NCBI GenBank assembly: GCA_965662895.1
Contig: CBFIJH010000002.1
Coordinates: 1-64,000 of the forward strand
Length of the DNA: 64,000 nucleotides
Source: Candidatus Poseidoniaceae archaeon
Lineage (GTDB): Archaea; Thermoplasmatota; Poseidoniia; Poseidoniales; Poseidoniaceae
Direction of reading: 5' to 3'
The notes under the pieces are model-generated. The model worked only from the letters and a program-made list of their open reading frames with translations, ran no database searches and was not told where the DNA came from. Each line of letters begins with the position of its first letter. Within the stretch, counting starts at the first letter, position 1. Shown here in pieces: positions 19,181 to 24,628 of the stretch. Made by a program: the position numbers and the translations under genes.

Positions 19181-19663
19181 ATGCACGTACTCATGGAGAC
19201 ATCAGCAGGGAATATTACCATCGAACTTTTTCACGGAAGCGCCCCAGATACTGTGGCAAATTTTGTCAAACTCGTCAATGACGGGTTCTACGACGGGCTT
19301 CATTTCCATCGTGTCATTGAAGATTTCATGATTCAAGGCGGATGTCCGCACTCAAAAGATCCAATGTCACGCCGCGCTGGAACGGGTGGGCCTGGATGGA
19401 AGATTCCTTGTGAGCCATCCGCTCTAGCACTGAAACACGACAAGCCAGGAGTTCTCTCGATGGCAAATGCTGGCCGCAATACTGGTGGCTCTCAATTTTT
19501 CTTGACGACAGTAGCAACACCATGGCTCAACGGAAACCATGCTGTCTTCGGTCAGGTCTCGGAAGGAATGGATGTTGTTCAGGCAATTGAAGGATGCCAG
19601 AAACTCCCCGGTGACCGTCCTGCACAACCTCAGCAAATCATCCGTTGCTCCGTTGTAGAGTGA
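19181..19663 (+). CDS. Cyclophilin-type peptidyl-prolyl isomerase
   Basis: [29 protein letters not shown] and [10 protein letters not shown]. Confidence 0.96.
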
Positions 19664-20631: not shown

Positions 20632-20654
20632 TCAATTGATGCGAGGTGCGCACC

Positions 20655-20918
20655 ATGGGAAATGAGCGAACCTTGTCAAAGGCTCGAAAAATTGCGCGCC
20701 GTCTCGCAGGTCAAATTGAGAAACTGAGCGACGCACTCGAAGATCTTGAACTGGAATTCGCCATGCTGATGAAGACCATCGACAAGATGGAGGCCAAACA
20801 AGGCCAGTCTCGTGGCACACAAATCGATGTTACTGTCAACGTTGATGAGGAAGATGAGAATGATTTCGACGTCACAAATACCTCAGCACCTACCGTTAAG
20901 GGACGACGTAAATTCTGA
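20655..20918 (+). CDS. Hypothetical coiled-coil protein
   Basis: GAGGTG RBS before MGNERT; heptad pattern; fills the gap between neighbours. Confidence 0.65.
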   Translation: MGNERTLSKARKIARRLAGQIEKLSDALEDLELEFAMLMKTIDKMEAKQGQSRGTQIDVTVNVDEEDENDFDVTNTSAPTVKGRRKF

Positions 20919-21305
20919 TTATTCGGTTGCGTTTAGCGCGCCTGACTTACGCGCTTCGATGAAGGACTGTACGCACAAATACGTGTAGATGGACCCTGTC
21001 ACGAGGAGCATCAACATCGAGGATGTTGCATAGTTGAGCCCATCGGACATCACCATGAAAAATCGTGTTCCGCCGAGGGCACAAAGCAGACCAAACGTTA
21101 CTGCGATATGCATCCACAGTTTCCGTTTCTCAGGGTTGCGGGTGGCCAGTATGCCCGAAATCAAGATTGGTGCACCAAGCATTGATGGAAAGTACGATGT
21201 GATCGAATTTGATTCGGAGAGGATTGAAACAACAATGCCCCATACAATGAGCATAGCTCCATATCCAGTTGTCAGGTTTGGCAGAAAATTGGAACGTTCT
21301 TCCAT
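20919..21305 (-). CDS. Small 4-TM membrane protein (TMEM14-like)
   Basis: Four hydrophobic helices; YG..LI..G, SITS..P, RKLWMHIAV and FIEARK. Confidence 0.75.
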   Translation of the reverse strand: MEERSNFLPNLTTGYGAMLIVWGIVVSILSESNSITSYFPSMLGAPILISGILATRNPEKRKLWMHIAVTFGLLCALGGTRFFMVMSDGLNYATSSMLMLLVTGSIYTYLCVQSFIEARKSGALNATE

Positions 21306-21398
21306 GCCCTTTCCAGGGCAAGGAGGTTTATCAGTTCAATTCATGCTTGAGAATCGTTGTTGGGTTGATTTAATAACGGCCGATTTGGGTTAATAATC

Positions 21399-22994
21399 AT
21401 GGCTAAACACAATGTCGGAGACCGTCGAATTGTCTCCGTTAGCATACCCGAAGATGTTGCACAAGAACTCGATCGCTGGACAGGTGGTGGCAAGAATAAG
21501 GGTCGCAGCGCATGGATTGTTCAGGCCATTCGAAACAGACTTGACATCAAAGGAACCTATCATCAACTCAATCGTGAGGCGCGTAAACGATCGCCTCAAT
21601 CCAATGTTGAGTTTCGTATTGAAACCGACACGATGGGTGAAATGCAAGTCCCTGGCGACAAATATTACGGCTGCCAAACCGCTCGGTCGTTGGTCAATTT
21701 CGATATTGGAGACGATCGCATGCCGCGTCCGTTGATTCGAGCGTTTGGAATTCTCAAACTCGCAGCAGCACGGACCAATCGAGATCTTGGCGTTCTCGAC
21801 CGAGAAATTGCCGATTGGATTGTTGATGCCGGTGAAGAAGTAATGCATGGCGATTTGGATGAGCATTTTCCTCTTCGCATTTGGCAAACTGGTTCAGGAA
21901 CACAAACGAACATGAATACCAACGAAGTCATTGCAAACAGGGCCATTGAGATGGCTGGAGGGGTTTTGGGAAGCAAGTCACCTGTCCATCCAAACGACCA
22001 CGTTAACAAAGGCCAATCCTCGAACGATACATTTCCAACCGCGATGCACATTGCAGCAGCTGAAGAAATCGAATACAGTTTGCTGAAATCGGTTCGAAGT
22101 TTAAAGGAAAAACTTCGCTCAAAACAGAAGGAATTCAACTCGATTGTCAAGATTGGCCGCACCCACTTGATGGATGCTACCCCGTTGACACTTGGCCAGG
22201 AATTCAGTGGATATGTTCACATGCTTGAAGCTGACCTTCGACGTATTGAATTTGCACAGAAGGATTTGTTTGAACTTGCTCTTGGAGGAACCGCAGTCGG
22301 GACTGGTTTGAATTCACATCCTGAATTTGCTCAATTGGTTGCAAAGGAAATCGCACATCGGACGCAACTTCCGTTTGTAAGTGCAGAAAATAAATTTGCA
22401 CAACTTGCTGCCCATGATGCGATTGTAGCCGCAAGTGGAGCACTCAACACGCTTGCTGCAAGTTTGATGAAAATCGCCAATGACATGCGCTGGCTTGGCT
22501 CAGGTCCACGGTGCGGTATTGGTGAATTGTCACTCCCTGCCAACGAGCCTGGAAGTTCCATCATGCCTGGAAAAGTCAACCCGACGCAATCCGAGGCGTT
22601 GACCATGGTTTGTTGTCAAGTGATGGGCAATCATACTGCTATTACCATCGGCGGTAGCCAAGGAAACTTCGAATTGAACGTCTTCAAACCGATGATGATC
22701 TACAACCTTCTGCACAGCATTCGAATTCTCAGCGATGCATGTATCGCTTTTGGAGAACGATGCATCGATGGATTGGAAGCCAACAACGAGAACATTCAGA
22801 AGCATCTTGACAACTCATTGATGCTCGTTACTGCGTTAAATAACCACATCGGGTACGACAAGGCGGCTAAGATTGCAAAGAATGCTCACGAGAATGGACT
22901 GACCTTGCGAGAAAGTGCCATAGGTCTCGGTCTGTTAACCAACGAACAGTTCGATGAATGGGTTCGACCAGAAGAAATGACGAGCCCGAAGTAA
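21399..22994 (+). CDS. fumC: Class II fumarate hydratase with an N-terminal ribbon-helix-helix extension
   Basis: [44 protein letters not shown] and [13 protein letters not shown]; about 70 extra N-terminal residues. Confidence 0.95.
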
Positions 22995-22996
22995 GC

Positions 22997-24628
22997 CTAC
23001 AACTTGGTCTGTGAAGCGAGCGATTTAGCTTCTGCAAGGATACGTGTAACGTGTTCGAAGGTTTCTCGATCGTGTTGTTTCTTTTCATCGGACCTTTTTG
23101 TAAGGGTTCGCAATGTCATAGCCAGTCGATGATTGCCAGCAAAGGCATCCTTGTGTCGTTCAAAATAAGCCCAGTACATTGGTGAAATCGGGCAGGTTTT
23201 CGCTGGATGAAATTCACAGGATGAACAAAAGTCTCCCATCTTTTTGATGTACGGCGAACCAGAAACATACGGCTTGGTCATCATTGCATCACCAAGAGCG
23301 AAGGTTCCCATTCCCAGAACATTCGGTTCAACCACCCAATCAAACGCATCGATGAACGCTGCATGGAACCAATCGGTCAATTGACGCGGTTCAATATCCA
23401 TTAGTTGAGCAAGATTGCTGAGAACCATCAATCTTGGAATATGGTGCGTCCATGCTTCATCCATGACGCTTTCGACAGCCCAATCGAGACAATCCATTCC
23501 TGATTTTTGTCCCCAATATGCCATGGGCAACGACTTGCTTTGTTTGAGATGATTGGGATGAGCTGTTTCATCCGGTTCCACCTTCATCGGCCAGCCCGCA
23601 GTCCGGTTCGGTGGCGTCGTCGTCGCAACATCGAGCCGATGGAATCCATCTGTCACTTCGTGGACATGGTGGACGTACTCTCTCCAAATCATTTGTCGCA
23701 AATAGCCTTCTTGAGAGTTTAATGGGACGCTCGCTCTGACGACCACATCGATAACCTCTTGCGGCAAAATTCGATGAATGTTCACGGAAGAAGCAAGACG
23801 AGAATGAAACAATCCTCTGCTCTCTTTGGTCATCGCATCCTCATATGGCCCAAACAACGTCAAAATCTCTGAAAGAAATTCCAACGCTTGCCGGTGATCA
23901 TCGTACGAGGTCGGTAAGTGGTTCAAACGGGCTTCACCCGGATGTTCCTCAAATCGGTGATTGACAAGTGCAATAACTTCTTCATCAATCTCATCAATGG
24001 GATACGCAGGGGCTTGAGGGGGCTGATGCTCTCCTTTCCACGGTTGGCGATTGTCTGCATCATGACTGAACTTTCCTCCAACCGGAGAGTCTCCTTCCAT
24101 GAGCCATCCTTTCTCTTTGCGAACCCTTCGATAGAACTTGTCCATACGGAACGGTGGTTCGTCACCGACTGTTTCAGTGAACCAATCTTGAGGCGTGAGC
24201 CATCCAAGATGTGGATGTTCGATAATCGATTCTTCCTCAATCAATTCGGACAATGTTGATCTTAATTCACGTTCAGCTGCTCGATGCATGTTGATTGGAC
24301 CAAATTCTTGAGCTAATGCTCGAAGAGGTTCGTCGTATTGCTCACTGGTTGAGACATACACAACTGGGATTCCTTTGCGAACAGTTTCAACTGCGAAATG
24401 ACGCATATTGGAAAGAATGTAACACAGTTTTTGTTTGTGATATGGTCTTCTCTTTGCCTGTCTTTCGCTTTCGATCAGGATGATTCCAACGGATTCCTGA
24501 CCCTGTAACAATTCAAGGTTAAGTTGATCGTAAGGCAAGTACCACCAAGAGGCTGCATCTGAAGAATGAAACGATTTCATCTGAGATGAAAATGCCCCAC
24601 TGCCGCCCTCGACTTTCAACCAGCGCAT
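22997..24628 (-). CDS. Cryptochrome/photolyase, FeS-BCP (PhrB/CryB-like) class
   Basis: YDQL, HKQKL, FRMDKFYR, GGKFSHDADNR, FGPYEDAM, HHIPRLMV and TKPYVSG; Cys set (DCL...FCSSC...TCP) suits a 4Fe-4S cluster. Start may be MKSFH. Confidence 0.9.
   Translation of the reverse strand: MRWLKVEGGSGAFSSQMKSFHSSDAASWWYLPYDQLNLELLQGQESVGIILIESERQAKRRPYHKQKLCYILSNMRHFAVETVRKGIPVVYVSTSEQYDEPLRALAQEFGPINMHRAAERELRSTLSELIEEESIIEHPHLGWLTPQDWFTETVGDEPPFRMDKFYRRVRKEKGWLMEGDSPVGGKFSHDADNRQPWKGEHQPPQAPAYPIDEIDEEVIALVNHRFEEHPGEARLNHLPTSYDDHRQALEFLSEILTLFGPYEDAMTKESRGLFHSRLASSVNIHRILPQEVIDVVVRASVPLNSQEGYLRQMIWREYVHHVHEVTDGFHRLDVATTTPPNRTAGWPMKVEPDETAHPNHLKQSKSLPMAYWGQKSGMDCLDWAVESVMDEAWTHHIPRLMVLSNLAQLMDIEPRQLTDWFHAAFIDAFDWVVEPNVLGMGTFALGDAMMTKPYVSGSPYIKKMGDFCSSCEFHPAKTCPISPMYWAYFERHKDAFAGNHRLAMTLRTLTKRSDEKKQHDRETFEHVTRILAEAKSLASQTKL

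Follow-up and report, generated by a model that had tools for sequence, protein, structure and literature searches.

Enzymes that double as transcription factors, known as trigger enzymes, are few. In PutA, switching depends on flavin reduction and membrane binding. The trifunctional PutA of Escherichia coli and Salmonella carries an N-terminal domain of the ribbon-helix-helix (RHH) type and a central-metabolism enzyme in one polypeptide, and this RHH-enzyme fusion is described as an autogenous repressor of its own regulon (PMC5293562). In solved structures of NikR, flexible linkers connect a tetrameric core to two RHH domains that flank it, and the protein recognizes two pseudo-palindromic half-sites (PMC7949043). 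Here we describe an RHH domain fused to a fumarase in a Candidatus Poseidoniaceae archaeon. The fusion is encoded by a single open reading frame (ORF), which we call RHH-fumC, at positions 21399-22994 (forward strand) of a 64,000-nt stretch of DNA (assembly GCA_965662895.1, contig CBFIJH010000002.1, positions 1 to 64,000), referred to as the window. A preliminary description of the window, made from its letters alone, had proposed that the N-terminus of this ORF is an RHH domain that shares its frame with a complete class II fumarase (FumC), and that the product might be a trigger enzyme in the manner of PutA or a DNA-targeted fumarase. The proposed fusion held up throughout the present analysis.

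The resemblance of RHH-fumarase to PutA lies in the joining of an N-terminal RHH to an enzyme of central metabolism. However, the enzyme of PutA is a PRODH/P5CDH flavoenzyme, whereas the protein described here contains only Lyase_1 and FumaraseC_C, which belong to the fumarate lyase fold. PutA is also bacterial, while RHH-fumarase is archaeal. By its domain content, RHH-fumarase is not a member of the PutA family, and the likeness is one of mechanism only. The nearest sequence relatives of the RHH domain are those of NikR, which have an inter-helix loop of equal length with a G-x-S turn, and by analogy the same overall architecture would be expected. Unlike NikR, RHH-fumarase has no NikR_C domain in a Pfam scan, its core is a 460-residue enzyme, and its linker is longer and hypervariable. 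As far as sequence can tell, it is no NikR and only its RHH is NikR-like. Canonical class II fumarases, such as E. coli FumC and human mitochondrial fumarase (FH), share residues 72-531 and the catalytic motifs, but the solved fumarases that matched have no counterpart of residues 1-53. The N-terminal end of human FH holds a mitochondrial presequence.

The RHH-fumC ORF encodes 531 amino acids. Reading in frame from a TGA at 21366-21368, the first start codon encountered is the ATG at 21399. The start codon and a basic N-terminal arm occupy residues 1-10 (21399-21428), in which M1, K3, H4, G7, and R10 are invariant among 19 sequences. The RHH core follows at residues 11-50 (21429-21548), as delimited by Pfam RHH_1, hhalign against NikR, an AlphaFold2 (AF2) model, and Foldseek. 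A variable inter-domain linker, recognized by its segment identity and stop-free in relatives, spans residues 51-71 (21549-21611), and the FumC domain (TIGR00979, Lyase_1, and FumaraseC_C) covers residues 72-531 together with the TAA stop at 22992-22994 (21612-22994). All of these features are on the forward strand. The segment first described as RHH-like, 21399-21620, corresponds to residues 1-74, and the residues singled out at that time lie where claimed: RRIVSVSIP at residues 9-17, GRS at 35-37, and FRIETDTMG at 72-80. Contigs from four public sequencing runs span 21200-21900 with no indel and a continuous frame; all four belong to a single study, and the source sample is possibly among them. 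They differ from the window by a G>A change at 21388, upstream of the gene, and by a synonymous T>C change at 21503 (GGT>GGC). No stop between the two domains was found in these contigs or in relatives.

The enzyme half of the protein is a complete FumC. Residues 72-528 match model positions 1-457 of the 458 in the TIGR00979 equivalog, scoring 771.2 bits where the cut-off is 664.75, and Pfam places Lyase_1 at residues 80-410 and FumaraseC_C at residues 476-528. The SS-loop, with the GSSxMPxKxN signature, is at residues 385-395 (22551-22583), SSND at residues 207-210 (22017-22028), and GRTH at residues 253-256 (22155-22166); all three align with the same motifs of human FH. Residues 72-531 score 671.8 bits against human FH and 611.5 bits against E. 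coli FumC in an end-to-end alignment, while residues 1-53 are covered by none of the 46 matched solved fumarases or aspartases. The fumarase part thus looks intact and is apparently active, and fumarate-to-malate activity and a homotetrameric assembly are inferred from the match to human FH.

Multiple lines of evidence identify the N-terminal domain as an RHH. Pfam RHH_1 matched residues 12-49 of the N-terminal piece alone with 19.1 bits (E 0.0012), and RHH_1 was the top match in all 19 relatives (best E 1.6e-4). A domain profile built from these 19 N-termini of fusion proteins had its best sequence matches in the PDB to Helicobacter pylori NikR and the RHH antitoxin EndoAI (residues 12-56, E 0.16), and hhalign of the profile against five NikR proteins gave 97.6 % probability with an E-value of 3.5e-12 over 46 columns (residues 8-53). 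In genomes of the same phylum, the profile matched ORFs of 125-165 amino acids with E-values down to 8.6e-9. Those that we read are genuine NikR proteins, with NikR_C in all three that were scanned and RHH_1 in two of the three, each above its cut-off. Open frames of 433 and 447 amino acids around NikR-like matches in two genomes were rejected as further fusions, as they are GC-rich read-through before ordinary NikR genes.

Structure prediction agrees with the profile searches. The AF2 model based on 45 sequences has a mean predicted local distance difference test (pLDDT) score of 76.6, with an extended segment at residues 10-17 and helices at 18-28 and 35-50; it supersedes an earlier model from 19 sequences (pLDDT 57.6) that had no meaningful Foldseek match. 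The PDB neighbours of the newer model in Foldseek are nearly all RHH proteins, namely MazE-mt10, Arc, CopG bound to DNA, the NikR proteins of H. pylori and E. coli, ParD, and ORF56, with template modelling (TM) scores of 0.6-0.69 and root-mean-square deviations of 2.0-2.6 Å. In RHH domains, helix 2 starts with a G-x-S/T/N turn. In RHH-fumarase the corresponding turn, G35-R36-S37, is invariant in the 19 fusion sequences, and S13, P17, R36, and S37 remain invariant even when NikR sequences are added. A predicted complex of two copies of residues 1-55 scored 0.37 against a mark of 0.42 and is not used as evidence. Taking the profile matches and the model together, the N-terminal domain is an RHH of the NikR type; the preliminary description had named a CopG/MetJ-type pattern.

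We surveyed the order Poseidoniales for the fusion. The 74-residue N-terminal piece has a match (E <= 1) in 227 of 301 genomes, including 18 of 18 in the own genus; by family, it was found in 85/149 genomes of f1, 1/2 of f2, and 140/149 of f3. Nearly all of these matches lie within open frames of about 530-575 amino acids. In a profile search at the level of the class (E <= 1e-5), 41/89 genomes of f1 and 62/66 of f3 were positive, and the sister families f4 (0/43) and f52 (0/2) were negative. At the level of the phylum, strong matches (E <= 3.7e-18) were confined to Poseidoniales. Among proteins, residues 1-75 are common to 85 clusters at 75-91 % identity, all with a lyase domain, and 81 of the 85 are 529-559 amino acids long. 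The records of close relatives are titled Candidatus Poseidoniaceae (MGIIa), Poseidoniales, or Thermoplasmatota. Judged from these sequences, the fusion is present in both large families of Poseidoniales (Marine Group II). One species of the own genus has an RHH-fumC ORF of 564 rather than 531 amino acids, with a C-terminal extension of about 33 residues, and in genus g4 a divergent RHH with a shorter loop is fused all the same.

The segments of the protein are conserved to different degrees. Mean identity between genera, calculated for 37 sequences, was 0.76 for the basic arm (residues 1-10), 0.59 for the RHH core (residues 11-49), 0.13 for the linker (residues 50-71), and 0.75 for the enzyme (residues 72-531). 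Conservation of arm, RHH, and enzyme around a hypervariable linker indicates two domains under selection with a free linker between them. At the 44 loci that we read, every frame begins with M-[AGSV]-K-H or similar, with a stop few codons upstream, and runs stop-free from the N-terminus to RIExDTMG.

Free-standing versions of the domain were also sought. The fumarase RHH domain occurs only once in the own genome, where the only other RHH_1 protein scores 31.7 bits at C12:43810-43920 (+), within an open frame of 129 amino acids. Genomes of family f3 encode RHH proteins of about 129 amino acids with a C-terminal half that has no assignment, and these come second among the matches of the fumarase RHH profile. 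A profile search of a representative library gave 47 matches, and the 20 that were read included no free-standing close homologue; 16 of these 20 are short contig-end fragments of the domain, most of which continue into the fumarase motif. Full-length fusions would not be visible in this library, since they are clustered together with plain FumC there. Bacterial FumC proteins with N-terminal extensions, in which alignments start from about residue 45-62, were considered as further carriers and rejected, since an RHH was present in none of the 11 loci checked except one archaeal locus. An archaeal RHH-fumC with 87 % identity was found on a contig binned as an uncultured Rhodobiaceae bacterium, and this contig is probably mis-binned.

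The region upstream of RHH-fumC bears on where translation starts. A TATA-like box, TTTAATAA, occupies 21369-21376 (+), with its centre about 27 nt upstream of the ATG; it is a probable promoter as well as a candidate operator half-site. A second word, TTAATAA at 21390-21396 (+), lies at -9 to -3, 20 bp after the first, and is a candidate promoter-proximal element or operator half-site. In all 25 RHH-fumC promoters compared (15 genera), TTAWTAA starts at -27 to -31, and 15 of these promoters have another TAATTA or TTAWTAA 8-20 bp downstream of it; within the own genus, the second TTAWTAA is at -9 in 13 of 19 loci. The fixed distance of TTAWTAA, together with the lack of a conserved Shine-Dalgarno sequence, suggests a leaderless mRNA that starts at the RHH start codon and so includes the RHH.

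One could suppose that the fusion is an annotation artefact, with the RHH left untranslated and a plain FumC produced from Met79 or from a non-canonical codon. There is no ATG, GTG, or TTG in frame between M1 and M79. Met79 itself is inside the conserved N-terminal motif of FumC, RIExDTMG, and relatives that lack the RHH have their start Met 7-8 residues before the position of Met79. Furthermore, purifying selection acts strongly on the RHH in the frame of FumC, the drifting linker never gains a stop, and the TATA-like box is placed for transcription from M1. We therefore give this explanation very little credence. As read from the sequence, the RHH and a complete class II fumarase form one translational fusion, which is no artefact.

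The RHH is not found in every member of the family. We chose five Poseidoniaceae genomes for having no RHH match, and all have a plain FumC that is 74-77 % identical and begins directly with M-x-x-[VTM]-R-I-E-x-D-T-M-G. The fumC genes of these RHH-less genomes also have no TTAWTAA element, and a single deletion could account for the loss of both. In a tree of 44 FumC cores, rooted at its midpoint only, the five RHH-less sequences nest within RHH-bearing ones from genera g2 and g3; two to three changes are needed, and the starred branches force at least two. Given this nesting, the simplest account is an ancestral fusion with later losses, which makes the domain accessory. Plain FumC in a few Poseidoniaceae apparently arose by secondary loss.

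Loss of the domain without replacement in some lineages would also fit an RHH fold that is kept without DNA binding, as a dimerization or docking module that alters assembly, stability, or the binding of partners. The Pfam score, which is below its threshold, and an Ile at what we take to be the position of the strand arginine of H. pylori NikR are in keeping with this explanation. However, I or V also occupies this place in the strand of archaeal NikR proteins from the same phylum. In RHH proteins, the basic arm and the turn that caps helix 2 contact DNA and are not required for dimerization, and in RHH-fumarase both are invariant, with K3, H4, and R9/R10 in the arm and G-R-S in the turn. We consider a module that does not bind DNA quite improbable, and regard binding of DNA by RHH-fumarase as likely.

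How such a protein would be assembled can be proposed from its parts. Since class II fumarases assemble as homotetramers and RHH domains only as dimers, a tetramer with two RHH dimers is expected. In this particle, a catalytic FumC core would take the place of the nickel-binding core of NikR, the two RHH dimers would be held on flexible tethers, and the whole could grip a pair of DNA half-sites separated by one to two helical turns. The likeliest target would be its own AT-rich promoter, with TTAWTAA on the TATA box as one half-site and the second AT-rich word 8-20 bp downstream as the other. Bound there, the enzyme would act as a trigger enzyme and repress its own production, possibly under the influence of fumarate or malate. 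Two resemblances to H. pylori NikR serve as leads only: the Ser-x-Ser of the RHH strand is common to both proteins, and the ureA operator oligonucleotide given in PMC7949043 is AT-rich and contains TTATTAA. By analogy, we lean towards this overall reading, in which a NikR-like tetramer binds its own promoter in a PutA-like autorepression, and transcriptional regulation by RHH-fumarase, including that of its own gene, seems somewhat more plausible than its absence.

A number of observations weigh against autorepression by a NikR-like tetramer, and some of them concern the domain itself. RHH_1 is under its gathering score of 20.5 bits both for the N-terminal piece alone, as given above, and for the whole protein (13.8 bits). 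The Foldseek E-values of the RHH model are non-significant (0.66 and above) for this very short domain. Some Poseidoniaceae have no RHH, so the domain is dispensable. To our knowledge, FumC has no ligand-dependent switch, nor do we know of a PutA-like one. The remaining points concern the promoter. The conserved AT-rich elements may be just a TATA box and a promoter-proximal element, and the spacing of the second word varies between genera. As a control we used the promoter of the upstream cyclophilin gene, which is likewise conserved across genera; conservation of the fumC promoter is thus no proof of an operator.

A search of the own genome for operators and a regulon points the same way, as it left the AT-rich words as candidates only. 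TTAATAA/TTATTAA occurs nine times in the 1.86-Mb genome, and four of these occurrences form two pairs. The rarity of TTAATAA is unspecific, however, as TA-rich AT heptamers are all about as scarce genome-wide and are enriched in promoters. Two AT-only runs of at least 7 within -40 to -1 were found at 11 of 1362 crude gene starts. The pattern TTAWTAANNWATTA was present only at the fumC promoter in two near-complete genomes, but a pattern of that length is expected to be unique and this result is uninformative. The second pair, at C3:17468-17491, is a perfect inverted repeat (TTAATAA-N10-TTATTAA) between a divergent ORF of 112 amino acids, which has no Pfam match, and a biotin carboxylase gene. 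A regulon through this pair was considered and rejected, as such words are present in only 2 of 21 relatives' loci, whatever their RHH status; the repeat is probably a set of back-to-back TATA boxes. A separate motif of about 18 nt (roughly ACCGYTTKSMTCATAGR) lies at about -42 to -22 before the biotin carboxylase gene (C3:17556 in the own genome). It is kept in all 21 Poseidoniaceae loci read, independent of the RHH, and is a candidate regulator site or promoter.

The lack of a specific site in this search would fit a fumarase that is tethered to DNA by an RHH of low specificity, making or removing fumarate or malate locally at the nucleoid, for example in the damage response, with no control of transcription. 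Characterized RHH domains are mostly sequence-specific repressors, which speaks against such tethering. The enzyme part looks fully active, as judged by its intact motifs, and class II fumarases are found at or near DNA in other organisms: the yeast and human enzymes take part in the DNA-damage response (PMC2834712), and Bacillus subtilis Fum-bc is damage-induced and co-localizes with DNA (PMC5711358). Unlike the protein described here, in which association with DNA would be built in, these fumarases lack a DNA-binding domain of their own. A photolyase-related gene adjoins fumC, in convergent orientation, in part of the own genus. However, this neighbour was limited to 12 of 54 loci, several of them duplicates of one place, and there is no link of fumC to repair genes across the order. 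On balance we think tethering alone unlikely. A broader form of the idea, that the fusion is a one-polypeptide version of the relocalization of fumarase seen in eukaryotes and Bacillus, is also doubtful. In that scenario, the RHH would anchor fumarase on the chromosome of sun-exposed surface-ocean archaea, and local fumarate and malate chemistry would serve the DNA-damage response or chromatin-level signalling, with or without gene regulation. Autorepression at the fumC promoter remains the reading that we prefer.

The genes around RHH-fumC were compared across the same 54 loci. The photolyase-related protein, encoded at 22997-24628 (-), has 543 amino acids (Pfam DPRP and a weak FAD_binding_7), and its gene ends 3 nt after the fumC stop; it adjoins fumC in the own genus only. 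On the upstream side, an ORF of 90 amino acids at 20646-20918 (+) and a predicted membrane ORF of 128 amino acids at 20919-21305 (-), with no Pfam match, sit between an asparaginase-family gene and fumC in 27/54 loci, all within the own genus. The 128-residue ORF is divergent from fumC, and a control region of 94 bp is common to both. The cyclophilin gene at 19181-19663 (+) is upstream of fumC and syntenic across the order, in 34 of the 54 loci. Its promoter has a conserved word that is not TATA-like (approximately GCTMTTG) at roughly -35 to -25 in several genera, which may reflect an unusual kind of promoter element or a shared site for a regulator.

We found no description of an RHH-fumarase fusion or of a fumarase trigger enzyme in the full-text literature, a search that leaves subscription journals uncovered. 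A term search of a 2026 review of fumarase evolution (PMC13655608) gave no mention of ribbon, DNA-binding, fusion, Poseidon, or Marine Group. Public annotation is blind to the fusion, as precomputed Pfam lists contain the lyase domains only and the sole name given is "fumarate hydratase, class II". RHH-fumarase is a new variant within the RHH trigger-enzyme and NikR design, conserved and unannotated.

Marine Group II archaea (Poseidoniales) are among the most abundant planktonic archaea. If RHH-fumarase binds DNA, it would provide this uncultured group with a simple link from tricarboxylic acid (TCA) cycle state to gene expression, and would be a naturally occurring NikR-like construction with an enzyme in the place of the sensor core. 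It would also be a possible prokaryotic counterpart of the connection between fumarase and DNA damage in eukaryotes, and if the DNA-anchored form of the idea were true, the link between fumarase and DNA would look ancient and direct. As the RHH is present in some members of single genera and absent from others, these archaea offer natural controls for a comparison of metatranscriptomes.

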